The translations under genes were made by a program, and so were the position numbers. A stretch of DNA of 64,000 nucleotides, taken from positions 1,344,001 through 1,408,000 of the forward strand of contig CBDESU010000001.1 in assembly GCA_965242695.1 (NCBI GenBank), read 5' to 3'. Source of the stretch: Cenarchaeum sp. (lineage in GTDB: Archaea > Thermoproteota > Nitrososphaeria > Nitrososphaerales > Nitrosopumilaceae). Under the pieces are notes generated by a model. That model was not told the DNA's origin and did no database searches. It saw nothing but the letters and a program-made list of their open reading frames with translations. How positions within the stretch are numbered: position 1 is the first letter of the stretch; each line of letters begins with the position of its first letter. Below are positions 10 through 31,833 of the stretch, in pieces.

Positions 10-1941
10 CTAGCGGGCCGCTTTTGCGCGCTTCGCGCGGCCGCGGCCGGGTTTGCGGCGCGTCCGACTCGACGGCGGCGGCTTGCCCGGCGGCTTGCCC
101 GGCGGCTTGCCCGGCGGCGCCGGCGCCGCCAGGTCGCCGACCGAGGGCCCGTCGAGTGTCGACCACGTCAGCCGCCTTGCGCCGCCCCTCGTGGCTCGGC
201 CTTTACGGCTGCCGCCCCCCTTGTTCCCGCTCTTGCCCTTGCTCTTGCTCTTGCCCTTGCCCTTGCCGCCGCCGCTGTCGGGCGGCTTCACCCGCCTGAC
301 TGTCGAGTTGCCGGCCAGATGCCTCGCCACGCTTCCGCAAAAGTCCAACCCCCTTGCGTTGCAGGTCCGCTCTACGCCGTGGATCACGGCGTGGTCCTCG
401 GCCCCCTCCAGGCTGCGGTTGCCTCCCGTGACCTTGCGTATGGAGACGCTGGGCCTAAAGGGCCGCTCGCCGTCGTTGTTGTGCCAGTCTACGCCGTCCA
501 CCTCAAGGAACGTGCAGATCTTGTTGCGCTCCCTCCTGAGGCGCTTTGCGAACCTCTTGCAGTCGGGATCCGTCCACTCCGTGTCGATCAGCTTGTCGAG
601 GCGCGCCTCCAGGTCCTTCTTGCACTCGAGCCGCTTGCGCTTGGACTTGAACTTGTCGGCGCGCTTGGCGTCCTCTATGATTTTGATCAGCTCCGGGGCC
701 ATCTTCTCGGTGAACTCGGCTCCGGGGCCCTTGTACCTGAGCGTCCGGTCGATCTCGCGCGAGTAGTGCTGGAGGCACACCTGCTCGGCCGTTCCGATGC
801 CGTTGGTAGCGCCGTACGAGTCCTTGCACACGGTGCCCTCGAACCCCTCGAGGTACCTGCGCGGGACCTCGGAGCCGCGGCTCGCCTCGATCGCAAGCAC
901 GACGGTCCACTTCGTCACAAAGTCCCACAGCCACACCATCTGCCCGTTGATCCACCACCGCGTCTCGTCGACGTTGACGACGCCGGACGCGCGCACCTGC
1001 CGCACAAACTCCTCGCGCAGTGGCCCCAGGTGCTTTGCCACGCGGTGGAAGGCGCGCGTCAGGTCGTCCTCGTCTATCCTGATGCCCAGGAGGGCGGCGA
1101 GGAGGTACCTGGCCTTTCCATAGGTCAGGCCGCTCACCCGGAAGGCGGCCAGGGTCACGTCCGTGCGCAGGCTGAACCGGCTGTTCGGCAGGGCGATCGG
1201 CGACCATGCCGTGTGCATCTTCTTGTGGAGGGGGCACCACCTGCGAATCTTGAATGTCAGGATCTTGTTGCGCAGCACCTCCATGTCGACGACGGTCTGC
1301 TTGACCGATTCCACGGGATCCGACAGGGGCGTGGAGCCGTCCACGGGGCACACCTTCTGGTCTATCTCGTACGCCTCGTCGATCGGCTGGTCGGGATCCG
1401 CAAGAAACTCGCTCAGGGTCGGGAGCCCCTCCTCGCCCGGCTTTGCCCCGCCCATGTGGGGGTTCGACAGGGGGGTGAATACCTGCCCCTTTTCGTCCTG
1501 CCCCTTGCCGCCCCCCTTGCCCTTGCCGCCCTGCCCCTTTTCGTCCTGCCCCTTGCCCTTGCCGCCCTGCCCCTTTTCGTCCTGCCCCTTGCCCTTGCCG
1601 CCCTTCTTTTTCCCCGATGCGGATCCGTCCCTTTTTGAGCGCCCCCTCCCCCTTGCATGCATTCCCAGCATCTCCGCCGCTAGGGCGGAGTTGGTCCTGC
1701 GCGCCTCATTCAGATCCCCTTCTAGGCCGGCCGCACGGTCCATAAGCTTTGTCACCGTTTCCACCAGATCTTTCTTGTCGCCCTCCGCCTTTTTTACGCG
1801 TTTGTCGAGCCTGGCTACGGTCCCCTCCAAACGCTTGTTCCTGCTCTGGATCTCCCTGTACCCGGCCAGCAGCTCGGCTTTCGTCCACTGCTCGGGCGGC
1901 CCCTGCGGCTCCTTCCACCGCCGGGCCCCGTCTCTCGCCAA
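10..1941 (-). CDS. IS66-family DDE transposase (TnpC-like, single-ORF element)
   Basis: IS66 motifs VNVDETRW, CKDSYG, QVCLQHYSRE and HNNDGERPFR; N-terminal coiled coil and C/H Zn-ribbon. Start placed at TTG 1941, ~25 nt below a TTAATATA box (1967-1974). The ORF-track start at 2067 probably over-extends. Confidence 0.9.
   Translation of the reverse strand: MARDGARRWKEPQGPPEQWTKAELLAGYREIQSRNKRLEGTVARLDKRVKKAEGDKKDLVETVTKLMDRAAGLEGDLNEARRTNSALAAEMLGMHARGRGRSKRDGSASGKKKGGKGKGQDEKGQGGKGKGQDEKGQGGKGKGGGKGQDEKGQVFTPLSNPHMGGAKPGEEGLPTLSEFLADPDQPIDEAYEIDQKVCPVDGSTPLSDPVESVKQTVVDMEVLRNKILTFKIRRWCPLHKKMHTAWSPIALPNSRFSLRTDVTLAAFRVSGLTYGKARYLLAALLGIRIDEDDLTRAFHRVAKHLGPLREEFVRQVRASGVVNVDETRWWINGQMVWLWDFVTKWTVVLAIEASRGSEVPRRYLEGFEGTVCKDSYGATNGIGTAEQVCLQHYSREIDRTLRYKGPGAEFTEKMAPELIKIIEDAKRADKFKSKRKRLECKKDLEARLDKLIDTEWTDPDCKRFAKRLRRERNKICTFLEVDGVDWHNNDGERPFRPSVSIRKVTGGNRSLEGAEDHAVIHGVERTCNARGLDFCGSVARHLAGNSTVRRVKPPDSGGGKGKGKSKSKGKSGNKGGGSRKGRATRGGARRLTWSTLDGPSVGDLAAPAPPGKPPGKPPGKPPPSSRTRRKPGRGRAKRAKAAR
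1483..1603. repeat. Coding tandem repeat (GKGKGQDEKGQ-like, ~3 copies) inside the IS66 transposase
   Basis: Repeated ctgccccttttcgtcctgccccttgcc units. A 12-bp PPGK repeat (x3) also lies at ~75-118. Confidence 0.85.
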
Positions 1942-2141
1942 GATCCGCCGTCCGGGCCCACGGGGATATATTAACATGCCTAAATGCGATCGCGCCTTCG
2001 GATGCGGCGCTATACGCGCTGGCACTGCGCCGAGGCGCCAAGTCGTCCCAAGACACCGCCGTGCCACGCGCCCCCTGCCTGCGCCGGCCCCCTGCCTTGT
2101 TGCGATCGGGCAAAAACCACTTCAAAAACCGGGATAGTTAC

Positions 2142-3077
2142 GCCGTGTCGCTTCTTGACGTGCTCATAGTACTTCTTCAGGTGGTCGTCGTAGCGGACTG
2201 CCACTGATGCCACCTGAATCATTATCCAGTTGAGCTTGCGGTTAACGTCGAGCTTTTTCATGCCGCCATGGCGTAGAGAGTCTCCCGACTGGTGCACGCT
2301 TGGGCACATGCCTACCGTCGAGATAATCTTCTTGGGATCCGAGAATCGATCTATGCCGTCCAGCTCTGCTGAAATCAGCAGCGCAGAGTACGCGTCGACG
2401 CCAGTCATGCTGACGATCCGGCGCACCGTCGGGGCAAACTTTGAGTTTGCCGCCTCGCGGAGAACATCCCTCTCTGCAAGGCCGATCTCGCGGTTGAAGA
2501 ACTCTAGCTGCTTGACGAGGCGCTGGATGTTCGTGTTGTCGACGTGGTTGCCTAGCGTTGTGCCGCGGAGCTGGGTAATGGCTTTGTTCGAGTAGATCTT
2601 GGTCGCTTTTAGGCGTACATCGTACTTTACGAGCAGGGCGCGAAGCCTGTTGCAGACCTTCGTCCTGTCCTGTACGAGTGCGATGATGGCGCGCATCATG
2701 TCCCTCAGCGCGCGCGTCTCCTGGTCGCCCAGGTGGCACGCCGGAAAGGCGTCGCGCCTTAGCAGATCCGCGATCTTTTCGGCATCGTTCTTGTCGTTCT
2801 TGTTGGAGCTCATCCATATGATCCGCATCTTGTACGGACTGCCAAGCTTGAACTCCACATTCTCCTTCGCGCACATGTCGCACAACTTTGCCCACATGTA
2901 CCCCGTGGCCTCGCAGCCGACGACGAACTTGCCGTGCTCCCTGCGCGCTGCCTTGAGGAACCTGCGTGTGCCCTCGGCCGTGTTGCCAAACATGGCGCGG
3001 TCGAGAACCTTGCCCTTGCGGTCCATGATGCATGCATGGTTGGTCTCTTTAGCGATGTCTATTCCAATATATTTCAC
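2142..3077 (-). pseudogene. IS110-family (DEDD) transposase, C-terminus interrupted by IS66
   Basis: Motifs YIGIDIAK, GCEATG, KNDKNDAEKIA and GMCPSVHQSG. GTG start at 3077 with GGTGA upstream. After ...EHVKKRHG the frame reads into the IS66 end. Confidence 0.9.
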
Positions 3078-3285
3078 ATTATCACCCCCTTTATCATACG
3101 TGTGGTCGGTCGTAAGCTGCACTCACCTATCAGGGCTCTACGGCCCAGTAACACAGCAGTTCGGACTGCCCCATTCAAGCATGAGGGCTCTGTTGGCCCA
3201 TGCCGTTTGAGGGGTCGCTCGACCACAGGCCGGCGCGCCCCAGGGGGTTTACATGGGTTCAAGCATGGGGCAGGAGCTGCTAAAG
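3078..3285 (-). ncRNA. Putative IS110 bridge/seek-type non-coding RNA
   Basis: About 200 nt of non-coding sequence between a TTTATA box (3303-3308, minus) and the transposase start. Inverted repeat CTGCCCCAT...ATGGGGCAG and direct repeat CATGCTTGAA. IS110 elements are known to encode guide RNAs in their non-coding ends. Confidence 0.5.
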
Positions 3286-3515
3286 GTGGGCCTCTGCAAC
3301 CATATAAACGACGATGCACTGGCCAAAGGCTGCACGCCGACCCTGGCGGTCGCCGGCGAAGGATGGGCGGGCAGCAAGCGGCGCCGTGGGAGAAAAGGCG
3401 GCAGGTGCGTAGAGGTGCCAGCCAGGACGAGGGGGATCGGGCAGGGTCAAAGCGACACGCAAGCCTGCCTAGGCAAGGGCCGCCTTACCTTGGCCCATAG
3501 TTGTGACACAAGGCG

Positions 3516-3550
3516 CGAGCGCGCCGAGGCGCCGGCACTGCCCGCGTAGC
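3516..3550 (+). repeat. 35-bp direct repeat, copy 1 (second copy 7193-7227; encodes ERAEAPALPA*)
   Basis: cgagcgcgccgaggcgccggcactgcccgcgtagc is identical at both positions. Confidence 0.9.
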
Positions 3551-4572
3551 CGGCCGCGCTCCGAACTAGGACCGGGGCCTCGCGGCCGGCGGATCTCCCC
3601 GCGCGCCGGAAAGCGAAGACGGGCTGGTGCGATAATTGCGGCCGTCTTGCCGCCCCCCTCCCCCCCCTCCGCGGCCGCCCACGCAGGGCACTTTTGGGAT
3701 CCTGTCCCGCGTCGGGCCGCCCGCAAGAGACATATCCGGCATGGCGTGCCGCGCGGCATTGCACGCGGCACATGGAACAGGGGCGGCGCGCCGGGCGGTT
3801 GCCCTGTGCGGCCCGGCCCGAATCCGAAGGGCCCGCGGGTGCGCCGTGCCCGCCGTCCGACACGGCACCCGCCACCATGCGGCGCCGGCAGGGCGCGCGC
3901 GGAGGGGGCAGGGCGGCGCCCTGCCCGCAGGGGCGGCGCCCGGCCCGCCCCACGGAGGCAGGTTCTGTTGACGTTCCTAGCAATGGGCCGCGCAAAGGAA
4001 TGCATCGTGGCGCTCTCGGACCGCATGGAGAGCGTCAGTCATTCCCATCCCAACGAAGTGACAAAGTACGATCTGAGCGACGCGGGTGAATACTACATAG
4101 CCCTTTCGGGCGACGGGAAGACGGCAGGCGGCCTGCTAAGCAGGCTGAGGCTCCGCCAGCCCTCGGGAGCCGGCGTCCTCGGGGAGATCGACAGGATATC
4201 TGCCGAACTGTTCGCAATGGAGCTGAGGGGGCAGGTGGCCGGCCACCTGATCGTGGCAGGCGGCGGCGAGTTCAGGGCGTACACCATTGCCGTCGTATCC
4301 GGCATCGCAGTGTACGTCCAGAACAACGATCCCATCCACATGGAAGGCGACACAAGGGCGGCCGCCGTTTGCAGGAACCTTGCGCTGGACATGCCCCTGG
4401 CGGACATGCCCTGCGAGACCGCCGTCAAGTGCCTGCATTCCATGGCGGGCCGCATTGCAGAGACGGTCGACAGCGTGGGGGACGGCGGCAAGCATGGCGA
4501 GGGCCCCCGTAGAGTGAGAACGATCGGAATGGGAGGGGTTAAGAGCCCCGGGGGCGCCGGGGAGGCGAAAAA

Positions 4573-4890
4573 ATGACGCACAAGCGGTGGACCGCCAAGG
4601 AGCGGGTGGACATAGTGGTCGAGTACCTCTCGACGAACATCGGCGTGGCCGGGATATGCCGCAAGTACGGCCTCTCGCCAACCACGTTCGACAACTGGCG
4701 CAAGAGGTTCATGGACGCGGGCAAGAGGGAGCTTGCCGGCATAGGAGGCAACGGCAGGAGCGATCCTGCAAAGGCGCTGGCCAAGGAGAACGAGTCGCTC
4801 AAGATCGTCGTCGGCGAGCTGACCTTGGTCAATGCCGAGTTAAAAAAAAGCTGGGAGTTGAGGAGAGGGCGAGCGCGGTCAAGAGGATAG
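4573..4890 (+). CDS. IS3-family transposase OrfA (HTH)
   Basis: KRWTAKERVDIVVE...VAGICRKYGLSPTTFDNWRKRF, an HTH_Tnp_1-like motif followed by a leucine zipper. A8G slippery site at 4842-4850. Confidence 0.9.
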   Translation: MTHKRWTAKERVDIVVEYLSTNIGVAGICRKYGLSPTTFDNWRKRFMDAGKRELAGIGGNGRSDPAKALAKENESLKIVVGELTLVNAELKKSWELRRGRARSRG

Positions 4891-5726
4891 CGGAGGGCAA
4901 GGTGAGCCTGACCCGGGCGCTAAAGTACTGCGGCGTCTCGCGCCAGGCGTACTACTACAAGAAGAGGCCCGTCAAGAGGGACATCGACATGGCCGTCGCA
5001 AAGGCCGTGACCCGCATATCCTCGGAGAGGCCCACCTACGGGACGAGGATGATCGCGCACACCGCATCGTACGAGATGCGGCGCCGGGTCAACCGCAAGA
5101 AGGTGGTGCGAATATGCGACATCTTGGAGATAAAAGGGCCAAAAATGACGAAAAAACAGGCGATTCGGGCTGCAAAGGCGCGGAAACCGCAGTTCTTCCC
5201 CACGGCGCCGTACCAGCTGCTCGAGACGGACATTACGTATATAGACTGCGGCGTCGACGGGTGGTGCTACTGCTTCAACGTGTTCGACGTGTTCACGCGC
5301 CGCTGGCTTGGATACGTGTTCTCGACGTCTGCCCAGGCGTCGTCGGCCGTCCAGTCGGTGACCGAGGTCGTGGCGGAGCTGCGGCCCGAGCGGGTCAAGG
5401 GGATCCGCGTGCGCTGCGACAACGGCTCGCAGTACAGGAGCGGCGAGTTCAGGGCGGCGATGAAGGTCCTCGGCCTCGTCGTCGAGTACATCTGGGTCAG
5501 CACCCCCCAGCAGAACGGCCACATCGAGTCGTTCCACAACACGCTCAAGCGCGACTACGTCCGCCCGCACGACTTTGAGAGCTTCCAGGAGGCCGAGAAG
5601 TACCTGGCCTACGCCTTCAAGGACTACAACGCCAACAGGGTCCACTCGTCGATCGGGTGGCTGCCGCCCGACGAGTTCTTCAGGCTCTGGGAAAGAGACA
5701 ATAAGGAGGGGGAGGGGCCGGCATGA
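4842..5726 (+). CDS. IS3-family transposase OrfB (DDE integrase core), expressed by -1 frameshift
   Basis: Motifs LETDITYI, RCDNGSQY and TPQQNGHIESFHNTLKRD; -1 frame relative to OrfA. Confidence 0.9.
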   Translation, partial: KKKLGVEERASAVKRIAEGKVSLTRALKYCGVSRQAYYYKKRPVKRDIDMAVAKAVTRISSERPTYGTRMIAHTASYEMRRRVNRKKVVRICDILEIKGPKMTKKQAIRAAKARKPQFFPTAPYQLLETDITYIDCGVDGWCYCFNVFDVFTRRWLGYVFSTSAQASSAVQSVTEVVAELRPERVKGIRVRCDNGSQYRSGEFRAAMKVLGLVVEYIWVSTPQQNGHIESFHNTLKRDYVRPHDFESFQEAEKYLAYAFKDYNANRVHSSIGWLPPDEFFRLWERDNKEGEGPA

Positions 5727-13222: not shown

Positions 13223-16200
13223 CTACCGCGGCGCCGGCGCGCCGGCGCACTCGGCCGTGTACTCTACGTGCTGGACTAGCCTGGTGGCGTTGACCTGGTC
13301 GTGCCCCGTCAGGTTGATCCTTAGCCACAGCGGCTCGCCCAGGCCGCCGCCAAGCCCCTGCGCCACGGCGGCGGGCAGCTGCGAGTACGCCCCGTCCTCC
13401 CCCGCCTCGCTAGCCACCGTAAGCGAGGCCGGCAGGGACGGGGCGCTCGGTCCGGGCCGCGGCGACGAGGGGTCGATGTACCACGGGGTCGCATCGAGCG
13501 CGACGCGGGCAAACGGCTGCGAGCCAGAGTTGGCCACGTCCTGCCTGGCCGCCTTGGAATGGGCGCCCGGCATCGCATCCACGGCCAGGGTTCCCGCGCC
13601 GAGGCGCAGCGAGCACGTATGGTATACGGGCGGCGGCGTGCCGCGCTCGGAGGCGACCGTGCCGAACCGCGTCAGGTGGTACGTGTAGACGACCAGGTCG
13701 CCGCCTTCAGAGTCGATCCGGCACTCGCCCATGCCGCCGAGCTGGAGGTGCACCCTGCCCGTGTCGTCGGCCGCGCACGCCATGTCGATCGGCTCGATTG
13801 TGCCGTTTGCCCCGCCGTCGATGTAGAACGCGCGGCCGGCGGCCTGGCCCTCGAGTGATATGCGGATGGGCATGTCGAACGAGATGCGGGCGTCCTCGTC
13901 GCCGATCTCGACGACCCTCTGCAGCACGACCGCGCCCGAGCCGCCGTATGCGAGCGCATCCCGTATGCTAGAGTTTGACGGCAGGTCGGTATCGACGGAC
14001 GCGTTGACTACGTGCAGGACGAGCCGCCGGTCGGCCGGCACGGACGTCGCCTCCACTCCGGGCGGGAACGAGACGGATGCGAACGACGTAGTCACTACGG
14101 TGGCGCTGCCGGACGGGAACCGCACCGCTCCGCCGGCAGTCCCGGCGCCAGGCAGCCCCGACACGTCGATCGTAATGCGCGCCTCGTCTCCCCTGCCGGT
14201 AAAGTTTCCCTGGCCGTCGACCCGGTCGGATCCGACGACGAATACGGGCGAGGTCGCGTTGCCGTTGGCGCCGGGGTCCGTCGCGTTGCCGTTGGCGCCG
14301 GGGTCCGTCGCGTTGCCGCCCGGCGTCTCGCCTCCGCCGTTGCCGCCGTTGCCGCCGTTGCCGCCCGGCGTCTCGCCTCCGCCGTTGCCGCCGTTGCCGC
14401 CCGGCGTCTCGCCTCCGCCGTTGCCGCCCGGCGTCTCGCCTCCGCCGTTGCCGCCGTTGCCGCCCGGCGTCTCGCCTCCGCCGTTGCCGCCGTTGCCGCC
14501 CGGCGTCTCGCCTCCGCCGTTGCCGCCGTTGCCGCCCGGCGTCTCGCCTCCGCCGTTGCCGCCCGGCGTCTCGCCTCCGCCGTTGCCGCCCGGCGTCTCG
14601 CCTCCGCCGTTGCCGCCGTTGCCGCCCGGCGTCTCGCCTCCGCCGTTGCCGCCGTTGCCGCCCGGCGTCTCGCCTCCGCCGTTGCCGCCGTTGCCGCCCG
14701 GCGTCTCGCCTCCGCCGTTGCCGCCGTTGCCGCCCGGCGTCTCGCCTCCGCCGTTGCCGCCGTTGCCGCCCGGCGTCTCGCCTCCGCCGTTGCCGCCGTT
14801 GCCGCCCGGCGTCTCGCCTCCGCCGTTGCCGCCGTTGCCGCCCGGCGTCTCGCCTCCGCCGTTGCCGCCGTTGCCGCCCGGCGTCTCGCCTCCGCCGTTG
14901 CCGCCGTTGCCGCCCGGCGTCTCGCCTCCGCCGTTGCCGCCGTTGCCGGTGGCATCTATTGTGATGCCCGATGCGCGCAGTGCATAGGGCGAGTCGGCCG
15001 GCGGCAGCCCGAGTTCCGCGTTGTTGCCGGCCGCGTCTTGCGCCGTCCCTGCAACCAGGGACAGGGCATCCTCGCCTTGGCCGTAGGCCAGCGGATCCGC
15101 GCTGTCGCCGGCATCCACCGCATGGCTGAACACGAGCGTCCGGCCGCGGTCCGACTGCCGCTCGTACCGGGCGGTCGCATCCTCCCCGCCGCCAAGCGCC
15201 AGCCTCAGCGACAGGTCGGCCCCGCTGGACAGGACGACCCGCTCGTCGAAGGCGACTGCGATCCGGATCGTGTCGCCCTCGCGGTACGGGGCTTCCCGGG
15301 GATCCGCATCCGTGACGCTCGCCACGCGCGGCGCGGCCGTGTCGATCCTGATGCCGGCCGTGGCGCCGAGCAGCCCCTGTCCGTCCGGCCGGGGCAGTCC
15401 CAGGTCGGCGCGTCCGGCGGTTCCGTCCGAGTCCCTAATGTCTCCGCCGTTGAGGACCAGGGCGCTGCTGTTGGCATGGCCGAGGCGGTCGGCGGCGTCG
15501 CCGTCGCCTACCGTATAGCGGAACTCGATCTCGGCATCGCCGTCGCTGTCTTCGACGTACGCCGCGCTCCGGGGCGGGTCGGTCGAGAGCCAGAGAAGGG
15601 GCGTGCCCGTCACGTCCACGGCCTCGGTAAAGGCCACGGTGACGTTGATTTTCGAGCCGGCCGCGTACGCGCCGCCCTCATCCGGCGAAAAGACGGACTC
15701 GACGGCCGGCGGCGTGTCTATTGTTATGCCCCGCCCGTGCCCGAGCGATCCCCCCTCGCCGGGGGCGGGCAGCTCCAGGTCGGCCGACACAGAGCCGCCG
15801 CTGCCCCGCGCGCCGGCATCCTCGACGAGGCCGCGCGTCACCAGGGCGCCCGCCCCCGCGTATTCCAGGCCGCCGCCCGCGTTGTCGCCCGGCCGCACCG
15901 TGTAGTTGAACACGAGCCTCGACGTGCCGCTGCCGTCCAGGTATCCGGCGGCCCCTTCGCGGCCGCCAAGGTCGAGCAGCAGGGAGGGGGGCGGATCAGC
16001 GACGGACACCGGCGCGTCGAACCCCACGGTAATGTTGATCGACTGGCCCGCTCCGTACTCGCCGTCCCGCAGCGACGCCGAGGCGTTTTCCACGGATGCG
16101 GGCGAGAGCCGGATCAGCTGGATGTCGTCGCCGCTGGTGCCGTCGGACGAGGTCACCATGGCGTACGTGCGGTTTGCCATGGCGAACACGGCGGTGCCGT

Positions 16201-19200
16201 AGGCGTCCCCGAATGCCGGAAAGTCCGCGGCGGCGGCAGAGCCTGCGGGGAGCGGCGCGCCGTCGTCGCGGAACCGCACCAGCTGGACGCCGTCGTCGTC
16301 GGTGGCCGCCACGGCGGCGAACGTCTGGCCGCCCATCTCAAAGGCGGCGATGCCCTGCGGGTTTGCCAGCCTCAGCCCGCCGGTGTCGACGAGCCGGTGG
16401 TCGGGGCTCGCCTCGGGCGTGCCGTCGTCGCGGATGCGCACCGCCTGGACGCCGTTGTCGCCTCCGCGCGCGGCGACGATGGCGTACGGGCTGCCGCCGA
16501 TCTCGACTGCCTCGATCGCCAGGGGGGCTGCGAGCGCCAGCGAGCCCGTGTCGGCGATCTGGTGGTCGGGGCTCGCCTCGAGCGTGCCGTTGCCGTGTAT
16601 CCGCACCACCTGGACGCCGTTGCCGTCGCGCGCGGCCACGGCGGCGTACGTGCGGTTGCCGATCTCAAAGGCGGCCACGTCGGAGGCGCCGGTGAGCCTC
16701 AGGCCGCTGCCGTCGGTAATCTGGTCGGCCGGCCTGAGCGTGTCGTTGCCCGGGTGCACCTCGAGCAGCTGGACGCCGCTGTCCCAGAGCGCGGCGGCGA
16801 TGACGAACGTGCGGTTGCCGATCCCGAAGGCGTCGACGCCGAGGGCGCCGAAGAGTTCGAGCGTGTTCGAATTGCTGCCGTCGCCGGCGACATTGTCGAC
16901 GAGCGTGAGCGACTCGTTGCCGGGGTGCACCTCGAGCAGCTGGACGCCGTTGTCGTTGAGCGCGGCGACGACTGCGAACGTGCGGTTGCCGATCCCGAAG
17001 GCGTCGACGCCGACGGCGCCTGCCAGCCGGTGGGTGGCGGCGTTGGTGTCTTCTATCTTGTGGGCCGCCTCGAGCGTGCCGTTCTCGTGCACCCGCACCA
17101 GCAGGGCGGCGCTCGGGCTGTACGAGGTGGCGACCGCGTACGTTCGGCCTTCCGCCTCGACGACCGCCGAGTGGCGCGCGCCGGCGAAATCCAGCAGGGT
17201 GTCGGCCGCTGCAGGGGCCGCGGCCGCAATCACCGGCAATGCGGCGCCGATCACCGCGATGTCGCTCCGGCCGGCCAGTGGGCCGTCCGGCCCCGGGGCG
17301 GGCAGCGTCCGGTTGGCCGCGTTGCCCGCCGCATCCCGTATCGCCGCGCCGCCGGCGGCTCCCAGGGACAGGGCGTTCCGGCCCGCATAGTCCAGGTCCG
17401 CCGCCCGATCGCCCGGCTGCACCGCGTACGCGAACGTCAGCTCGGTCGTGCCACTGCCCGAGGCGTACGTGGCGTTCCGGGGCGGATCGGTCGCAAGGCG
17501 CAGCGCGGGAGCCCCCTCGGCGTAGACGGTCTCGTCAAAGGATACGGCGATGTCGACGATGCGACCCGTGGCGTACGCCCCGTCCGCGCTCGGCGATGCG
17601 ATTCCCTCGACCGACGGCGCCCTGGTGTCGATTGTGATGTTCTTCGAGTGCCCGAGCGAGCCCTCGGCGCCCGGGACGGGCAGTACTACGATGGCGTCCG
17701 TGCCGTCGGACTGGTCGCGGACGGACGCGCCGCCGCCCAGGGACAGCCGAGTGCCCGCGTAGTCCAGATCGGACGCGCCGTCGCCGGGCTGCACCGTATA
17801 CCGGAACGTCAGCACGTTCGTGCCGGTGCCCTCAAGGTACGTTGCGTCCTGCGGAGGGTCGGTTGCCAGCGCCAGGCGCGGCACACCCGCGACGTCGACG
17901 GGGACGGTGAACCGGACGTCGATGTCGACGTGGCGGCCGGGCCCGTACGCGCCGTCTGCGTTGGGCGAGGTGACGTTGCGCGGGTACGCCGCCGTCGACG
18001 CGTCGATCCCGATGCCTCGCATGTGGCCGAGCGATCCCACCTCGCCCGGCTCGGGCAAGGACAGGCCCGCGTCCGCGCCCGGCGCCCAGGCCGCATCGAC
18101 TATTCGGCCGCCCGGGGATCCGGCGGCAAGGGCCGTCGTCCTCGCATACTCCAGGGCGGCGGCGCTGTCGCCCGGCTGCACGGTATACGCGAACTCGAGC
18201 AGCCGCGTGCCGTTCCCCGACACATAGTCGGCCGTGCGGTTCCCCCCGTCGAACGCGAGCAACAGGGAGGGGGGAGGCCCCAGGACGTCGACGGGCTTGT
18301 CGAATGCGACTGTAATCGGAATGCGGTAGTACGCAGGGTACGTCCCGTTCTGCAGGGGCGACGATACGGACAGCGCCTCGGCCGGCCGCGTGTCGACTAC
18401 AAGCGGATCCTTGGCCGCAAGCGAGCCTGGCTTGCCGTGTGCCGGCAGGGCCAGGTAGGCATCGGCCCCCTCTATGCCCGTTATGGATCCGCGCGTCGTC
18501 AGGGGCGTGGCCCCCGCGTACCCGATGCCGCCGACTGCAAGGTCACCCGGCCGCACCGTGTAGTTGAAAACGAGCGCATCCGTGTTGTTGCCCACGAGGT
18601 ACGGCGCCGACACGGCGCGCCCGTCAAGCAGGAGCGACAGGGACGGGGCGGAGCCGAGCACCCTGACGGTGCCGTCGAATTCGACCGTGACGTTGACATG
18701 GCATCCGACCCCGCACGTGTCGTCGGCCGACGATGCCGATACGTTGGTGGCGAGCGTGGGCGAGAGCCGGATCATCTGGAGGCCATCCGAATACGCGACC
18801 GCGGCGGCGTACGCTACGCCGCCTAGCTCGAACGCGGCGATGCCGCGGGCGCCGTTGAGCTCGGGAAAGCGCGGGCCGTCGGTGGCCGAGCCTATCCCCT
18901 CGAGCGTGCCGTCGGGGTGGATGCGGATCAGCTGGACGCCGTCGTCGTCGTACGCGGTCACGACGGCGTACGCGGCGCCGCCGAGCTTGAACGTGTCTAC
19001 GTGTGATGCGCCGCCGAGCTCGGGAAAGGCGGCGCCGTCGGTGGCCCAGGAGACCCCCTCGAGCGTGCCGTTCGTATGGATGCGTATGAGCTGGACGCCG
19101 TCGTCGCCTGACGCGGCCACGATCGCGTACGTCTTGTTGTCCATCTCGAAGACGTCGATGCCGCGGGCCCCGTTGAGCTCGGGAAAGGCGGCGCCGTCGC

Positions 19201-21613
19201 CGGCCCGGTAGATCCCCTGGAGCCGGCCGTCCGGGTGGATGCGGATCAGGTGGACGCCGTTGCCGCTAGACAGGGCCACCACAGCGTGCGCCGTGCCGTT
19301 CAGCTCGAACGCGTCGATGCCCCGCGGGCCGTAGAGCTCGCCGAATCCAGGGCCCGCGCCAACCGTGGAGTTTTTCACAAGGGTACCGTTCGGAAGAATG
19401 TTGATCAGGTTCACGTTGTTGAAGGGATGGACGGTCAGGATGCCGAACGTCTTGTTGTCCATCTCGAACGTGTCGGCATCGTACACGCTCCTGGCATCGG
19501 GTCTCGACGTTGACCAGTAGGTCACGCCGCCGCCCGGCGACATGGTACCGGCGCCGCTCCCGTTTATGCGAACCAGCTGGATGCCATAATCATTCCACGA
19601 TGCCGCGAGGGCATGCATGGTGCCGTTCATCTCGAACGCGTGGACGTTTTTGACCGCGTCGAGCAGCGGAATGCCGAACCGCCAGACGTTTTCCATTGAC
19701 CCCGACCTTTCCAGGGTGTTGCCGTCGCGTATGCGGACCAGCTGCAGCCCGTCGCCGTCTTCCTCACCGACTAGTGCAAACGTCTTGTTGCCTGCCTCGA
19801 ATACGTCGACGCCGTACGGGCCAATGAGACCGTAGGCGCCGGCCGGCGCCGGCGCGGCCGGCGAGAGGACGGCCCCCGGGGCGCCGGCAATCGAGATGCT
19901 CCTTGACGCGGACAGTGAGCCCGGGGCGCCTGGCCGCCACAGATCCATGTCCACGGCCGCGCCTCCTTGCACGGCCGAGATCGACCCGCCGTCCGGCACG
20001 ACAAGGGACGCCGTGTCGTTGTAGTCGAGGACGGCCGCCGTGTCGCCCGGCTGCACCGTATACCAGAACTCTAGCGCATCGGTGCCGCTCCCGCCCCTGT
20101 ACAGCGCGTATCGAATCGGATCCGTCCCAAGCTTGAGGCGCGGCTCGCCGGCTACTGCGACGGGATCCGTAAAGTTCAGCGTGACGGCGACGATCTGCCC
20201 CGTGCGGTACGTCTCGTTCGTGTCGGGGGATGCCGCGAACCGCACGAACGGCCCGGCCGTCTTGACCAGGATGTCTGCCGAATGGCCGAGCGAGCCCTCT
20301 TCGCCCGGCTCGGGCAGGACAAGGTCGGCGTCGTTGCCCGCCTCGTCCCTTATCGTCCCGCCGTCAAGGCGTAGCGCCGCCGCGCTTGTATAGTCGAGGT
20401 CGGCGGCCCGGTCGCCCTGCGCCACCGTGTAGTCGAACGCGAGCGTGGTAGTGCCGTTACCAGAGGCGTATGTTATGTTGCGGCTTGCGCCCACGCCGGT
20501 CGCAAGCTCGAGCAGGGGCGTCCCCGTGACTTGGACGACCTCGTTGAATAGGACCGTGACGTTGACGTACGAACCGGCGCCGTGCGTGCCGTTCGCGCTC
20601 GTCGAGGAGACCGACAGGACGGACGGGCCCACGATATCCCCAAGCCGGACGGGCACAGTGCGCCCAATCGATCCGGATGCAGACAGCGTCAGGTTGGCGG
20701 TGTTTCCGGCAAGGTCGGTCAGGCTGCCGGCCGTCGTGAGTGCCATCGTTCCGTCGTAGTCCGCGTCCGCCGAGTCGTCGCCGCTCTGCACTAGGTAGGA
20801 GAACGTGAGCCTGTTCGTATTGTTTCCCGATGCGTAGCCGGCGCTGCGTGTCTCCCCTCCTCCCAGGCTGAGCCGTAGCACCGGCGCGGCGCCCGAGTAG
20901 ACGACCGTCTCGCCAAAGTTAACGTCGAATTCGACGGTCTCGCCGTAGCCGTACCCGTCGGAGGGATCGACGGTGACGTTGGACACGCGCGGCGCGATGC
21001 CGTCAACGCGTATGTCGCTCTGGTTGGACAGCGAGCCGGCCGTCCCGGGGCCGGGGCTCGGAAGGCGGCAGTTTATGTATAGGCTGTCGGGGTTGGTCAA
21101 GCTGTCGTAGGTGAATGGTGCACTGTTTGCTGCAAGATGATCGACAGTCGTGTACCACGCATCCCTCGAATGGTAGTCCAGATCGCCCGACTCGTCGCCG
21201 GCCTGCACGGTGTATTGGTAGTGAATTACACGACGGTTACTCGAGTGGGAAGTGGATTCGGCAAACCGATCCTCTGTCCCGGTCTCGAGCTTGATGCGGG
21301 TGTGCGTCCCTGCGATATGTTTGTTGGTGTCGTCGTTCTCGATGGGCCTGCTGACCGTAATGTCAATGCCTATGGTGTCGTCGATCTTGTACAGGCCGTC
21401 GGGCGAGGTGAACCGGATCGACGCGGTAGTGCCGCCCGAGTGTATGGCGCATTGCCTTACTTCGCCCATCGCGGCAACGGAGTGGGCGTGGGCCGCGGGC
21501 ACCGGCTCGGCGGCCGCTACGGCGAGCGCGGCCGCTGCTACGGCGAGCGCGGCAACGGCGGCCAGGCGCAGGGCACGGCGGCGTCCGGATCGCGCGCTGG
21601 ACGGGACCTTCAC
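13223..21613 (-). CDS. Giant secreted/surface protein (2,796 aa): Ig-like repeats, two beta-propeller repeat blocks, Gly/Asn linker, C-terminal domain with HLTRF
   Basis: Signal peptide (RRRALRLAAVAALAVAAA...AHA); repeated 'Y.SG.GT..L.F.YTVQPGD...LDY' Ig-like units; repeated 'YAVVAA..DDGVQLIRI' blades; TTTATA at ~21723-21729 (minus). Confidence 0.9.
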   Translation of the reverse strand: MKVPSSARSGRRRALRLAAVAALAVAAAALAVAAAEPVPAAHAHSVAAMGEVRQCAIHSGGTTASIRFTSPDGLYKIDDTIGIDITVSRPIENDDTNKHIAGTHTRIKLETGTEDRFAESTSHSSNRRVIHYQYTVQAGDESGDLDYHSRDAWYTTVDHLAANSAPFTYDSLTNPDSLYINCRLPSPGPGTAGSLSNQSDIRVDGIAPRVSNVTVDPSDGYGYGETVEFDVNFGETVVYSGAAPVLRLSLGGGETRSAGYASGNNTNRLTFSYLVQSGDDSADADYDGTMALTTAGSLTDLAGNTANLTLSASGSIGRTVPVRLGDIVGPSVLSVSSTSANGTHGAGSYVNVTVLFNEVVQVTGTPLLELATGVGASRNITYASGNGTTTLAFDYTVAQGDRAADLDYTSAAALRLDGGTIRDEAGNDADLVLPEPGEEGSLGHSADILVKTAGPFVRFAASPDTNETYRTGQIVAVTLNFTDPVAVAGEPRLKLGTDPIRYALYRGGSGTDALEFWYTVQPGDTAAVLDYNDTASLVVPDGGSISAVQGGAAVDMDLWRPGAPGSLSASRSISIAGAPGAVLSPAAPAPAGAYGLIGPYGVDVFEAGNKTFALVGEEDGDGLQLVRIRDGNTLERSGSMENVWRFGIPLLDAVKNVHAFEMNGTMHALAASWNDYGIQLVRINGSGAGTMSPGGGVTYWSTSRPDARSVYDADTFEMDNKTFGILTVHPFNNVNLINILPNGTLVKNSTVGAGPGFGELYGPRGIDAFELNGTAHAVVALSSGNGVHLIRIHPDGRLQGIYRAGDGAAFPELNGARGIDVFEMDNKTYAIVAASGDDGVQLIRIHTNGTLEGVSWATDGAAFPELGGASHVDTFKLGGAAYAVVTAYDDDGVQLIRIHPDGTLEGIGSATDGPRFPELNGARGIAAFELGGVAYAAAVAYSDGLQMIRLSPTLATNVSASSADDTCGVGCHVNVTVEFDGTVRVLGSAPSLSLLLDGRAVSAPYLVGNNTDALVFNYTVRPGDLAVGGIGYAGATPLTTRGSITGIEGADAYLALPAHGKPGSLAAKDPLVVDTRPAEALSVSSPLQNGTYPAYYRIPITVAFDKPVDVLGPPPSLLLAFDGGNRTADYVSGNGTRLLEFAYTVQPGDSAAALEYARTTALAAGSPGGRIVDAAWAPGADAGLSLPEPGEVGSLGHMRGIGIDASTAAYPRNVTSPNADGAYGPGRHVDIDVRFTVPVDVAGVPRLALATDPPQDATYLEGTGTNVLTFRYTVQPGDGASDLDYAGTRLSLGGGASVRDQSDGTDAIVVLPVPGAEGSLGHSKNITIDTRAPSVEGIASPSADGAYATGRIVDIAVSFDETVYAEGAPALRLATDPPRNATYASGSGTTELTFAYAVQPGDRAADLDYAGRNALSLGAAGGAAIRDAAGNAANRTLPAPGPDGPLAGRSDIAVIGAALPVIAAAAPAAADTLLDFAGARHSAVVEAEGRTYAVATSYSPSAALLVRVHENGTLEAAHKIEDTNAATHRLAGAVGVDAFGIGNRTFAVVAALNDNGVQLLEVHPGNESLTLVDNVAGDGSNSNTLELFGALGVDAFGIGNRTFVIAAALWDSGVQLLEVHPGNDTLRPADQITDGSGLRLTGASDVAAFEIGNRTYAAVAARDGNGVQVVRIHGNGTLEASPDHQIADTGSLALAAPLAIEAVEIGGSPYAIVAARGGDNGVQAVRIRDDGTPEASPDHRLVDTGGLRLANPQGIAAFEMGGQTFAAVAATDDDGVQLVRFRDDGAPLPAGSAAAADFPAFGDAYGTAVFAMANRTYAMVTSSDGTSGDDIQLIRLSPASVENASASLRDGEYGAGQSINITVGFDAPVSVADPPPSLLLDLGGREGAAGYLDGSGTSRLVFNYTVRPGDNAGGGLEYAGAGALVTRGLVEDAGARGSGGSVSADLELPAPGEGGSLGHGRGITIDTPPAVESVFSPDEGGAYAAGSKINVTVAFTEAVDVTGTPLLWLSTDPPRSAAYVEDSDGDAEIEFRYTVGDGDAADRLGHANSSALVLNGGDIRDSDGTAGRADLGLPRPDGQGLLGATAGIRIDTAAPRVASVTDADPREAPYREGDTIRIAVAFDERVVLSSGADLSLRLALGGGEDATARYERQSDRGRTLVFSHAVDAGDSADPLAYGQGEDALSLVAGTAQDAAGNNAELGLPPADSPYALRASGITIDATGNGGNGGGETPGGNGGNGGGETPGGNGGNGGGETPGGNGGNGGGETPGGNGGNGGGETPGGNGGNGGGETPGGNGGNGGGETPGGNGGNGGGETPGGNGGNGGGETPGGNGGNGGGETPGGNGGGETPGGNGGGETPGGNGGNGGGETPGGNGGNGGGETPGGNGGNGGGETPGGNGGGETPGGNGGNGGGETPGGNGGNGGNGGGETPGGNATDPGANGNATDPGANGNATSPVFVVGSDRVDGQGNFTGRGDEARITIDVSGLPGAGTAGGAVRFPSGSATVVTTSFASVSFPPGVEATSVPADRRLVLHVVNASVDTDLPSNSSIRDALAYGGSGAVVLQRVVEIGDEDARISFDMPIRISLEGQAAGRAFYIDGGANGTIEPIDMACAADDTGRVHLQLGGMGECRIDSEGGDLVVYTYHLTRFGTVASERGTPPPVYHTCSLRLGAGTLAVDAMPGAHSKAARQDVANSGSQPFARVALDATPWYIDPSSPRPGPSAPSLPASLTVASEAGEDGAYSQLPAAVAQGLGGGLGEPLWLRINLTGHDQVNATRLVQHVEYTAECAGAPAPR
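14313..14948. repeat. 36-bp (and 27-bp variant) coding tandem repeat, ~18 copies, GGNGGNGGGETP
   Basis: Near-perfect ccgccgttgccgccgttgccgcccggcgtctcgcct array. Confidence 0.95.
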
Positions 21614-21838: not shown

Positions 21839-23197
21839 ATGGACTGGGGCCTCAAGAGGCGCATGGCAGACATCGTCCGGCCGCCCGGCGGGCGGGCCGT
21901 CATGCTAGCCGTCGACCACGGCTACTTTCTGGGCCCCACCGAGCGGCTAGAGAACCCGGCCAGGGCCGTCCGGCCGCTCGTGCAGCACTGCGACTCGCTC
22001 ATGCTCACGCGCGGCGTGCTGCGGGCGTGCGTCAACCCCAACTCGCGCGTGCCCGTCGTGCTGCGCGTGTCCGGCGGGCCGTCGATCATCGGCGAGGACC
22101 TGTCCGACGAGCAGATCACGGTCGGCATACGCGACGCGCTCAGGCTCGGGGCGAGCGCCCTTGCAATGTCCGTGTTCGTCGGGGCAAGGCACGAGCGGCA
22201 GACGGTAGTAAACCTCGGCAGGCTCGTCGACGAGGCAGAAGAGTACGGCGTCCCCGTCCTGGCCGTCACGGCGGTCGGCAAGGACATGGCCCGCGACGCG
22301 AGGTACCTCTCGCTCGCATGCAGGATGGCAGCCGAGCAGGGCGCCCGGATAGTAAAGACCTACTACTGCGAGGGGTTCGAGAAGGTCGTAGAGTCGTGCC
22401 CCGTCCCCGTCATCATTGCCGGCGGGAAGAAGATCGGCGAGCGCGGCGCGCTCGAGCTTACGGCGAACGCCGTGGCGGCGGGGGCCGTCGGCGTCGACAT
22501 GGGCCGCAACATTTGGCAGTCGGACCATCCGGTGGCCATGATAAGGGCCGTAAGGTCGATCGTCCACGAAAAGCGCACGGCAGCCGAGGCGCACTCGCTG
22601 TACGGGCAGCTTGCAAGGCAGGAGGGGGGCCGCGGCGGAGGCGGCGCAGGGGCGCAGGCTGGGCGCCCGCAAAAGGGCGGAACAGGAAGCCGCCCACAGG
22701 GGCAGCGGCAGGGCAGGCCGCAGCAGAGGGGCGGAAGCCAGGCGCAGGGCAGGCCGCAGGGCCAGGGCCAGCAGCAGGGCAGGCCGCAGGGCCAGGGCCA
22801 GCAGCAGGGCAGGCCGCAGGGCCAGGGCCAGCAGCAGGGCAGGCCGCAGGGCCAGGGCCAGCAGTCCGGCGCCCAGAAGGATCGTATGCAGAGCAGCCAG
22901 GGCGGCGGGCAAAAGGATCAGGCCAGTGAAAATGGGCAAAAGGATCAGCCGGGCCAGGGCGGCGGGCAAAAGGATCAGGCCAGTGAAAATGGGCAAAAGG
23001 ATCAGCCGGGCCAGGGCGGCGGGCAAAAGGATCAGGCCAGTGAAAATGGGCAAAAGGGCGGCAGCGAGGCGGCGCCGGCGGATGCTGGCAGGGCCGCAGG
23101 GCAGGAGCAGGGCGCCGGTGAGAGTCAGGGCAGGAACGACGGCGCAGGCGGCGCAGGCAACGCCGGCGGCAATGGCGAAGGCAGCCCGCAGCCCTAG
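21839..23197 (+). CDS. lsrF: 3-hydroxy-5-phosphonooxypentane-2,4-dione thiolase / class I aldolase (LsrF-like) with a long Q/G-rich tail
   Basis: MDWGLKRRM, VMLAVDHGYFLGPT, VKTYYC, IAGGKK, GVDMGRNIWQS; TATTTA ~25 nt upstream. Confidence 0.9.
   Translation: MDWGLKRRMADIVRPPGGRAVMLAVDHGYFLGPTERLENPARAVRPLVQHCDSLMLTRGVLRACVNPNSRVPVVLRVSGGPSIIGEDLSDEQITVGIRDALRLGASALAMSVFVGARHERQTVVNLGRLVDEAEEYGVPVLAVTAVGKDMARDARYLSLACRMAAEQGARIVKTYYCEGFEKVVESCPVPVIIAGGKKIGERGALELTANAVAAGAVGVDMGRNIWQSDHPVAMIRAVRSIVHEKRTAAEAHSLYGQLARQEGGRGGGGAGAQAGRPQKGGTGSRPQGQRQGRPQQRGGSQAQGRPQGQGQQQGRPQGQGQQQGRPQGQGQQQGRPQGQGQQSGAQKDRMQSSQGGGQKDQASENGQKDQPGQGGGQKDQASENGQKDQPGQGGGQKDQASENGQKGGSEAAPADAGRAAGQEQGAGESQGRNDGAGGAGNAGGNGEGSPQP
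22741..23056. repeat. Coding tandem repeats in the LsrF tail: 30-bp x4 (GRPQGQGQQQ) and 60-bp x~3 (GGGQKDQASENGQKDQPGQG)
   Basis: Visible directly in the DNA and the translation. Confidence 0.9.
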
Positions 23198-30483: not shown

Positions 30484-31833
30484 TTACCCGGTGCTTCCAG
30501 AGAACCCAAAGATGTCGTCAAACGTCATCAAGGCGATTTCCACGTTGTCGTCCGCCCCTATTCTGGCGACCTCGTTGAAGGCCCCCGCGGTGAAACTTCG
30601 AGCCACGATGATTCCCTTGCTCTTCTTGCTCCTTCTCACGGCCGCCAGGAACTTGTCTATCTCTTGGCGCCCCACACTCGCCCGCCATCGCTTCACCTGG
30701 ATCGGCACGGTCATCAGGTCTTTCCACCCGTCTATCCCCATGTCTCCCGTCTTTCTGGGATTGACCGTCCCGCCCAGCTTTTCGACTATAACCAGCCTGG
30801 CAAACTCGTGTGGATCCATCGCCTCGAGCTCCTCTCTGCTTTCGCATCCAACGACCCTTGCCGCGCCGAGGCGACCCGCCATAACATCGCATGCCGCCCT
30901 AGATATGTCAATCCCGATCCACTTGCGTCCGAGCCGCTGCGATGACCTGAGGGTTGTGCCGCAGCCGCAGAACGGATCCAGCACGACGTCGCCCTGACGA
31001 GTGGTCGACTTTATGATCTTGTCCAGTATGGCCTCCGGCTTTTGGGTCGGGTGGCCTGTCTTTTCGTCGCTTGGCGGGTTGTACTTCATTATGTCTGTCC
31101 ACACATCCGGAGGAGACTTGCCAAGTGGATTAATGGCGCTCTTGCGCTTCCTGTTGAGCTTTTCCCCGTCCCTGCCCATCCCGCGCGAGTAGACAAGCCT
31201 CCCATCGTCGTCGCGTACAGCCTGCTCGAGGAGCTTTTCGCTGTACGGCTGCCTTACCTGATCCTTGTCAAAATAGTACTTCTCCGACTTGGTGTACCAA
31301 AGGATCGTCTCATGGCTCTTTTCGTACTTTTTGGCGTTCCCTCCAATCGTGTTGAAGTGCCATATGATCTCGTTCTTGAAGTTGTCATACCCGAACACCT
31401 CGTCAAGCATGGCCTTGAGGTAGTGCGACGCATGCCAGTCGCAGTGCAGGTACAACGAGCCTGTGTCCCGCAGGACGCGCCAGCACTGGTTGAGTCTTTC
31501 CCTCATGTATGCAATATAGACATGTATGCCGTTCTTGCCTCCCCTCCACCGCTCCTCAATTGCCCTGTACTCGGCGATCACGTTCGGGTCTATGCTGTCC
31601 TGCATCTTTTCCCAGTCACTATCGGTAAAGCGAATTCGCGTCGTCTTGTCTTTGATCCATATGTCTTCATAATCCTTCTTGGAGAAGAACGGCGGATCCA
31701 TGTAGATTACGTCCACCGACCCATCTGGGAACCTGCGAGCATCGCGTAGCATGTCTAGGCAGTCGCCACAGTAGATGACACCGGTGTCGATAGGGGGGGG
31801 GCGGAGGGCCAGCGGGTTGGTCCGTACCGGCAT
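30484..31833 (-). CDS. N6/N4 DNA methyltransferase (beta class) fused to a C-terminal Mrr-like PD-(D/E)xK/QxK nuclease domain
   Basis: IYMDPPF, HPTQKPE and VLDPFCGCGTT; C-terminal GDMGIDG...IQVKRW...IIVARSFT. Start is 31833 or 31911. Confidence 0.9.
   Translation of the reverse strand: MPVRTNPLALRPPPIDTGVIYCGDCLDMLRDARRFPDGSVDVIYMDPPFFSKKDYEDIWIKDKTTRIRFTDSDWEKMQDSIDPNVIAEYRAIEERWRGGKNGIHVYIAYMRERLNQCWRVLRDTGSLYLHCDWHASHYLKAMLDEVFGYDNFKNEIIWHFNTIGGNAKKYEKSHETILWYTKSEKYYFDKDQVRQPYSEKLLEQAVRDDDGRLVYSRGMGRDGEKLNRKRKSAINPLGKSPPDVWTDIMKYNPPSDEKTGHPTQKPEAILDKIIKSTTRQGDVVLDPFCGCGTTLRSSQRLGRKWIGIDISRAACDVMAGRLGAARVVGCESREELEAMDPHEFARLVIVEKLGGTVNPRKTGDMGIDGWKDLMTVPIQVKRWRASVGRQEIDKFLAAVRRSKKSKGIIVARSFTAGAFNEVARIGADDNVEIALMTFDDIFGFSGSTG

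Follow-up and report, generated by a model that had tools for sequence, protein, structure and literature searches.

Do the giant proteins encoded in a 64,000-nucleotide stretch of the genome of Cenarchaeum sp. (GCA_965242695.1, contig CBDESU010000001.1, positions 1,344,001 to 1,408,000 of the forward strand; hereafter the window) cut themselves in two? The question is raised by a domain of ~180 amino acids (aa) that is present in each of two giant minus-strand open reading frames (ORFs) of the window, ORF1 and ORF2, and that ends in a His-Leu-Thr motif resembling the self-cleavage site of GAIN domains. Combining homology searches, a predicted structure and a survey of relatives, we suggest that this domain is probably a divergent, unannotated, thaumarchaeal member of the superfamily of ZU5, GAIN_B and MAIN (Microbial Autoproteolysis INducing) domains, and we consider it reasonably probable that it cleaves its own chain between the Leu and the Thr of the motif.

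In translation both frames are free of stop codons, and in both the domain follows a very large N-terminal part. ORF1 starts with a signal-peptide-like hydrophobic segment (residues 14-38), to which repeats of immunoglobulin-like (Ig-like) and beta-propeller-like type are joined; a linker of Gly/Asn-rich repeats then leads to the ZU5/GAIN-like domain, behind which 149 aa form the C-terminal fragment. In ORF2, dozens of Ig-like repeats come after NHL-like and beta-propeller repeats and lead up to the ZU5/GAIN-like domain. A linker connects this domain to a beta-sandwich, and the protein ends with a CFI-box-CTERM domain, a hydrophobic stretch and a basic tail; the CFI-box-CTERM domain, which lies ~350 aa downstream of the motif, is a putative C-terminal anchoring or sorting signal. 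The coordinates of these features are listed in Table 1.

The two copies of the domain (13640-14200 and 37396-37980, both on the minus strand) align over 188 columns at 48% identity (E 1e-52), and a tblastn search of the window with both copies yields no third one, the next match having an E value of 0.028. An earlier interpretation of this DNA, made from its letters and translated frames without database searches (the sequence-only reading), had proposed that the two giant proteins share a homologous C-terminal domain with a GAIN- or ZU5-like autoproteolysis motif directly before Pro-rich linkers, and that this domain is a self-cleaving release or mechanosensing module. Our data bear out the homology, HLTRF and HLTLF lie exactly where this interpretation placed them, and the consensus given for the domain reproduces the invariant columns of the pairwise alignment except for an S/T at one position. 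Pro-rich stretches do follow the motif directly in both proteins (...GTPPPVYH in ORF1 and ...SAPPPPPQPPVVVVVPPGGQQPPGG... in ORF2). The term C-terminal needs to be qualified: The domain is near the C-terminus and not at the end of either protein, because 149 aa (ORF1) and 493 aa (ORF2) remain from the motif Thr to the last residue. As judged from the alignment, the motif shared by the two copies stems from homology and not from chance.

The fold of the domain is taken from a predicted structure. An AlphaFold2 model of the copy 1 domain (P0003) that was calculated from an alignment of 53 sequences has a predicted local distance difference test score (pLDDT) of 91.6 and a predicted template modeling (TM) score of 0.88; the two window copies alone gave a pLDDT of 34.4. 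The model is mostly beta with two short helices (76-83 and 147-154), and Thr177 of P0003 forms the break between the last two strands, 169-176 and 178-184. In a Foldseek search of the PDB, ranks 1-8 are taken by ankyrin ZU5 domains (E 7e-4 to 1.7e-3, prob 1.00, TM-score on the target ≤0.58). They are followed by the GAIN domains of BAI3 (4dlo), CD97, BAI2 and CELSR1, with the ZU5 domain of UNC5b (3g5b) lower down; the GAIN matches 4dlo (E 2.6e-3, prob 0.97), 9mqr, 8ikj, 8oek and 8vy2 reach TM-scores on the query of only 0.33-0.41. Thus, the structural comparison that the sequence-only reading had called for returns ZU5 first and GAIN next, from a confident model in which the Thr sits at the turn of the last two strands. 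In the ESM Atlas the nearest named cluster is 'ZU5 domain-containing protein' (0.85 for P0003 and 0.84 for a Paenibacillus domain), which we regard as a lead only.

If the motif is an active site it should be conserved, and the sequence-only reading had named lack of conservation in homologs as grounds for giving up the proposal. An exhaustive HMMER search of cluster representatives with a profile built from the two copies identifies 607 representatives that match the domain at E≤1e-3, of which 103 reach E≤1e-30. Neither Pfam nor NCBIfam has a model that matches it, and the PDB contains nothing recognizable by sequence (phmmer returned noise at E ~1, the A2 profile 0 matches). When the best 150 representatives are re-aligned to the profile, they give 153 instances of the domain, of which 144 cover the motif. 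Among these, the His is kept in 139, the next residue is L, F, M or Y in all 144, the nucleophile position holds Thr in 134 and Ser in three (137 of 144), and the Phe two residues later is present in 140; the full T-x-H-hydrophobic-[T/S] signature is found in 132. The motif is therefore conserved in the family, from close relatives that read YTYHLTxFGT to distant ones (25-35% identity) that read WTxHFTxF. In the alignment of 53 sequences only four columns are invariant, namely I138, C142, C160 and H175, the last being the motif His.

The exceptions are informative as well. In the five instances that have lost the His (P0098, P0102, P0106, P0111 and P0117), which have R, G or P in its place, the Thr two residues upstream is also missing, being replaced by Ala in each case, compared to a loss of this Thr in only two of the 139 instances that bear the His. 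At the level of sequence this joint loss looks like the decay of a functional site, though the five may share ancestry. Five further members retain the His and lack the Thr/Ser nucleophile. Members without the His and members without the Thr/Ser are likely natural non-cleaving variants.

A bridge from the window family to ZU5 is provided by Bacillota. Relatives in this phylum are SLH-anchored, as in a Paenibacillus protein that consists of leucine-rich repeats (LRR), Big_2, the window-family domain and SLH, and they have a second beta-sandwich downstream that in most of them ends in xHFTKFAV. This second domain gives a Pfam ZU5 score of 26.1 bits in P0285, above the gathering score of 21, and four of eight members of its alignment (A4, the second domain of Bacillota SLH proteins) match ZU5 below threshold. 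Aligned with hhalign, A4 and a window-family alignment of 20 sequences that includes both window copies (A3) match at 91.8% (E 7.5e-7, 104 columns), with WTKHFTxF of the latter placed on vHFTKFAV of the former. The profile alignments thus establish, at the sequence level, a remote homology of the window family to a ZU5-positive HFT domain. Many Bacillota SLH proteins have the two as a tandem pair, the window-family domain (WTKHFT) being followed by the ZU5-positive domain (xHFTKFAV); examples are P0285 (residues 296-484 and 626-767), L066, L080, L021, L056, L061 and L041. Both domains of these proteins are putative self-cleaving domains. In a group of Paenibacillus/Cohnella LRR proteins the second domain lacks the motif (…AEPMIVGIF…) and the first retains it. 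PF26918 is listed in the precomputed annotation of P0265, P0271, P0299, P0336, P0341 and P0403; possibly it is a newly added Pfam model that covers one of the domains discussed here.

Searches that start from the second domain reach less far. A jackhmmer search from the ZU5-positive domain does not recruit the window family within three rounds, and the best 120 matches of the A4 profile that were listed are SLH proteins, none of them named YfkN; two matches of this profile carry 5'-nucleotidase or metallophosphatase Pfam domains, an enzyme context like that of YfkN that we note as a lead only. Against the PDB, the top match of the A4 profile is adhesion G-protein-coupled receptor (GPCR) F1, with HLTSF aligned on HFTKF, at a non-significant E of 0.23.

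The relatives are widespread. In a survey of bacterial and archaeal genomes with one genome per species, 399 stretches encode relatives, and in a manual tally of the record titles of 80 loci retained from these 399, 11 are archaeal, nine are from Bacillota and many are from Patescibacteria. Archaeal carriers include Nitrosopumilus, Nitrosopumilaceae, Nitrosotalea devanaterra (L065), Micrarchaeia, Woesearchaeota, Nanoarchaeia and Methanosarcinales, and Paenibacillus species (L010, L021 and L027) are among the bacterial ones. The species genomes of GTDB contain no close relative, the best match being 30% identical; close relatives at 55-73% identity occur elsewhere, with up to five paralogs on one 2.2-Mb contig.

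The relatives differ in what follows the domain. A recurrent layout is ectodomain, window-family domain and anchor, the anchor being CFI-box-CTERM (in seven of seven further homologs tested), SLH (in Bacillota relatives) or PG_binding_1 or dockerin (in distant representatives). Over half of the instances (158 of 296), including ORF1, have instead a Cys-bounded 'TCS' tail of ~130-150 aa without a recognizable family or anchor. In a subgroup (P0020, P0033, P0039, P0058, P0062, P0071, P0074, P0076 and others) the domain is internal, and the ~1,050 aa that follow it, a region present in at least 11 instances, begin like a right-handed beta-helix (…LEAMVAGAAAGGTVRVPAGTY…); here the predicted cut would part two large halves and not an ectodomain from its anchor. 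The order signal peptide, ectodomain, domain and anchor is thus seen in ORF2, with its hydrophobic segment and CFI-box-CTERM, and in many relatives, and not in ORF1 or the instances with a TCS tail. The tail of ORF2 is moreover colinear with a protein from a Nitrosopumilus metagenome-assembled genome (MAG; L001 ORF), in which half-domain, linker and Cys-bounded module follow each other in the same way (BLASTP E 4e-16). Together with the CFI-box-CTERM of ORF2, this colinearity makes a Nitrosopumilales-like affiliation of the window likely.

By combining the model with what is described for GAIN and MAIN domains, we suggest the following mechanism: (i) once the protein has been exported and has folded, the invariant His (H2646 in ORF1 and H6666 in ORF2) would activate the Thr two residues on, (ii) the Thr would attack the Leu-Thr peptide bond by an N-O acyl shift that is then resolved by hydrolysis, (iii) the chain would be severed at the tight turn that joins the last two beta-strands, and the new C-terminal fragment would accordingly start with TRFGTV or TLFGTV, and (iv) the last strand would stay hydrogen-bonded within the sandwich, by which the two fragments would be held together non-covalently until force or denaturation separates them. 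For ORF2, this would mean that a stalk of 493 aa is retained by the CFI-box-CTERM region and that an adhesin ectodomain of ~6,670 aa can be shed. In the case of ORF1 the 149-aa fragment would comprise only a small domain, so that a cut there has no evident purpose. The part of the sequence-only reading that concerned release therefore fits ORF2, where the CFI-box-CTERM provides a candidate anchor, and does not carry over to ORF1, which has no recognizable anchor after the domain.

Several observations weigh against a self-cleaving ZU5/GAIN-like domain. The TM-scores are moderate (0.40-0.58) and lower for the GAIN domains (0.33-0.41), placing the structural match at the level of the superfamily. 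The Pfam ZU5 hidden Markov model (HMM; PF00791) misses the window family, recognizing none of the 20 A3 members and giving no match at E≤1 for P0003 and P0004, and the domain has no sequence match in the PDB. With a broader alignment the hhalign comparison becomes weaker (42.9% in local and 63.8% in global mode, E 8.9e-6), while the match still runs colinearly over its full length and pairs the motifs. Because T-[YKF]-H-[LF]-T was part of the pattern by which the A3 loci were collected, the invariance of the motif in A3 and part of the A3-A4 score are ascertainment effects. Ankyrin ZU5 domains, the top structural matches, are not known to self-cleave, and among eukaryotic GAIN domains there are some that stay uncleaved despite an intact motif. 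Finally, given that no anchor is recognized after the domain, the rationale of release is not obviously applicable to ORF1 and to the majority of instances with a TCS tail.

Could the domain, then, be a non-catalytic ZU5-like spacer or binding module as in ankyrin and UNC5, with the motif being kept as part of a buried last hairpin? We consider this possible but rather unlikely. It would sit well with the best Foldseek matches being ankyrin ZU5 domains bound to spectrin (3f59 and 3kbu), with proteins of the ORF1 type that have no anchor to be released from, and with the 12 of 144 instances that miss a motif residue, from which it follows that the fold tolerates loss of the site. It does not readily explain why His and Thr/Ser are retained at the frequencies given above at an overall identity of 25-35%, beyond almost any other column, or why the spacing H-hydrophobic-[S/T] at the turn of the last strand is the catalytic arrangement described for GAIN and MAIN, or why the His and the preceding Thr are lost together. 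Moreover, the neighboring domain family in the same Bacillota proteins has a subgroup that has lost the motif and retained the fold, suggesting that the fold does not need the motif. Alternatively, the motif could be the site for a separate protease or sorting enzyme that processes the proteins in trans, coupled for instance to CFI-box-CTERM or represented by a DUF4344 putative metallopeptidase; the gene for the latter is divergent from ORF2 and adjoins its start, and '-CTERM' C-terminal sorting signals are usually handled by dedicated enzymes. We found no evidence for the DUF4344 metallopeptidase acting as such an enzyme. The same motif is kept in Bacillota, Patescibacteria, DPANN and Nitrosopumilaceae beside entirely different anchors (SLH, PG_binding_1, dockerin and CFI-box), which makes a lineage-specific partner enzyme unlikely, and it is part of a folded beta-hairpin in the model, well upstream of the CFI-box. 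In total, we give processing in trans only a very small chance.

That the motif is a chance or compositional artifact of long frames can be given practically no credence. DNA with the G+C content of the window (68.3%) does generate many spurious long ORFs; the present frames, however, run for 2796 and 7160 codons without a stop, have hundreds of homologs, are flanked by recognized domains and support a confident structure prediction, and the artifact is refuted by the alignment of the two copies, the family of 607 clusters and the model.

For the commonest architecture, in which a short Pro linker and an anchorless tail follow the domain, a further possibility is that the domain does not serve shedding and that, with its tail, it corresponds in archaea to the ZU5-UPA (FIIND-like) unit, here placed outside the cell, with self-cleavage arming the small C-terminal fragment. 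The strand and tail may in that case serve as a novel docking module for the S-layer or envelope, or as a signal that is released when the adhesin is pulled. We regard this as improbable; if true, it would together with the CFI-box form make up a force-gated adhesion system of multiple paralogs per genome in ammonia-oxidizing, possibly symbiotic, archaea.

Table 1. Features of the window; positions are those of the 64,000-nucleotide stretch, and cleavage sites and fragments are predicted.
Feature	Position	Strand	Description
ORF1	13223-21613	-	2796 aa; EPTP and Big_7 matches; 53 N-x-S/T sequons
Predicted C-terminal cleavage fragment, ORF1	13226-13672	-	149 aa: strand TRFGTV, short Pro-rich linker, Cys-bounded tail of ~130 aa (13226-13636)
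Domain copy 1, structured part	13649-14179	-	first to last predicted strand; P0003 residues 8-184, ORF1 residues ~2479-2655
HLTRF	13664-13678	-	ORF1 residues 2646-2650; predicted scissile bond between Leu2647 (13673-13675) and Thr2648 (13670-13672)
36-nucleotide tandem repeat	14343-14948	-	17.6 copies; encodes the low-complexity spacer GNGGNGGGETPG immediately upstream of domain copy 1
ORF2	35956-57438	-	7160 aa; signal-peptide-like segment (residues 35-61); 108 sequons
CFI-box-CTERM (NF041770)	36160-36375	-	E 7.5e-20; score 70.5 bits (cut-off 40)
Cys-bounded module (SATWDC...GGAC)	36949-37221 (approximate)	-	after the linker; colinear order kept in Nitrosopumilaceae relatives
Pro/Gly-rich linker after copy 2	37234-37410 (approximate)	-	from translation; equivalent in the Nitrosopumilus MAG protein
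Domain copy 2	37396-37980	-	ORF2 residues 6487-6681; from the alignment with copy 1
HLTLF	37429-37443	-	ORF2 residues 6666-6670; predicted scissile bond between Leu6667 (37438-37440) and Thr6668 (37435-37437)
300-nucleotide tandem repeat in ORF2	39791-41434		5.5 copies, 86% identity
300-nucleotide tandem repeat in ORF2	42593-44735		7.1 copies, 99% identity
DUF4344 putative metallopeptidase	57713-59266	+	E 2.4e-57
IS66-family transposase	10-2067	-	part of a mobile-element cluster (10-5726)
IS110-family transposase	2010-3122	-	part of the same cluster
rve integrase	4587-5726	+	part of the same cluster
Short tandem repeat	22737-22864		30 nucleotides x 4.3, 97%; within the 3' part of an ORF with a DeoC/LacD aldolase domain
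Short tandem repeat	22896-23057		57 nucleotides x 2.8, 100%; within the 3' part of the same ORF
N6/N4 DNA methylase and Mrr-type restriction endonuclease domain fusion	30484-31911	-	

The 300-nucleotide repeats of ORF2 encode near-identical Ig-like modules of 100 aa (ILSANVTGGNNLTITYSEPV...), and their identity suggests a very recent expansion or ongoing homogenization; repeats this similar are also a risk for the assembly. The tail of ORF1 has no match in Pfam, NCBIfam or the sequences of the PDB, and we recognize no membrane anchor in it. The window contains no rRNA or tRNA gene.

If the domain does cut between Leu and Thr, adhesins of 2,800-7,200 residues would consist of two non-covalently held pieces, and how such proteins are anchored, turned over and shed would have to be rethought. 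Since the family comprises 607 clusters and lacks a matching model in both Pfam and NCBIfam, a dedicated HMM would give an annotation to many giant surface proteins that are currently 'hypothetical'. Our literature search returned nothing on CFI-box-CTERM, on an archaeal ZU5-like domain of S-layer or surface proteins or on autoproteolysis of thaumarchaeal giant surface proteins.

How does the self-cleaving domain that we propose compare with known ones? It shares with the GAIN/GPS domains of adhesion GPCRs and polycystin-1 the form of the motif, HL|T-x-F being the same as HLT[RL]F, and in GAIN domains, too, the cut falls in the last hairpin and the strand stays bound. The membrane-adjacent position of GAIN beneath a giant adhesive ectodomain is likewise comparable to that of the window domain. 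In contrast to GAIN, the window domain has no helical GAIN_A part, as it contains just two short helices and is preceded in copy 1 by a Gly/Asn-rich repeat; the window proteins have no seven-transmembrane receptor downstream, and no tethered-agonist signaling is evident from them. The Cys/Trp pattern that we take to be the GPS consensus is not reproduced either, the close family having only two conserved Cys (C142 and C160) and no conserved Trp.

Among ZU5 domains, those of PIDD and UNC5CL and the FIIND of NLRP1 and CARD8 cleave at HF|S or SF|S, and those of ankyrin and UNC5 are not known to do so. The window domain resembles ZU5 (PF00791) in its best structural matches, its remote profile homology and the position of the motif at the end of the domain, and the small domain that comes after it makes for an order reminiscent of ZU5-UPA. 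It differs from ZU5 in that it would be extracellular and not cytosolic, in that a Pro-rich linker precedes the following domain and in that the Pfam HMM does not match it.

The conceptual basis for joining these families was laid by Zhang, de Souza, Anantharaman, Iyer and Aravind in 2012 (PMC3482391). According to the passages of that paper that concern these domains, ZU5, GPS and Nup98 are united as one autopeptidase superfamily, related domains are found in polymorphic toxins and in bacterial surface proteins that are large and contain adhesion modules, and autoproteolytic processing is proposed to be general. The set described in these passages is bacterial and has its active site in a C-terminal 'CxH' thiol motif, as opposed to the H-L-T triad of the window family, and archaeal giant adhesins are not discussed in them. 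The SEA/SEAL domains of mucins and of clostridial RsgI are autoproteolytic according to the Discussion of a recent preprint by Brogan and Rudner (bioRxiv, May 2026, 10.64898/2026.05.12.724683). They have in common with what is predicted here the self-cleavage in an inter-strand loop, non-covalently associated products and force-dependent separation; their fold and motif are different, and no search that we made found a similarity.

The closest parallel is the subject of the same preprint (10.64898/2026.05.12.724683), which reports a wide occurrence of GAIN-like MAIN domains among both bacteria and archaea. As described there, Edman degradation places the cut at F|S of HFS in the prototype, B. 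subtilis YfkN, and in several further bacterial domains, cleavage is abolished by S1346A and rescued by a Thr substitution, and the fragments co-purify, the ectodomain being freed by sodium dodecyl sulfate or heat. Usually a signal peptide and the ectodomain come before the MAIN domain, and an anchor comes after it. The MAIN set, which numbers 15,000 proteins, was defined by PSI-BLAST from YfkN, the domains assayed were bacterial only, and the available text contains neither 'Thaumarchaeota' nor 'Nitroso'. The window domain is like MAIN in being a predicted GAIN_B/ZU5-like beta-sandwich with H-hydrophobic-[S/T] in the turn before the last strand, in lying, in ORF2 and many relatives but not in ORF1 or the instances with a TCS tail, between a large ectodomain and a putative anchor in proteins with a signal-peptide-like segment, and in its proposed role, which is non-covalent tethering and force-dependent release. 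It is unlike MAIN in having Leu-Thr (close relatives) or Phe-Thr (distant ones) at the position of Phe-Ser and an inserted helix region with two conserved Cys, and the CFI-box-CTERM of ORF2 differs from the sortase, SLH and other wall anchors of MAIN proteins. Given that the window family co-occurs with a second, more canonical ZU5-like HFT domain in the same Bacillota proteins, it is probably a distinct subfamily. If the predicted cut takes place, the GAIN/MAIN mechanism would also operate in an archaeal lineage whose envelope has an S-layer and whose anchor is of the CFI-box-CTERM type. With the prediction of the concept dating from 2012 and its demonstration in bacteria from 2026, this would be an extension of a known kind of system and not the discovery of a new one.

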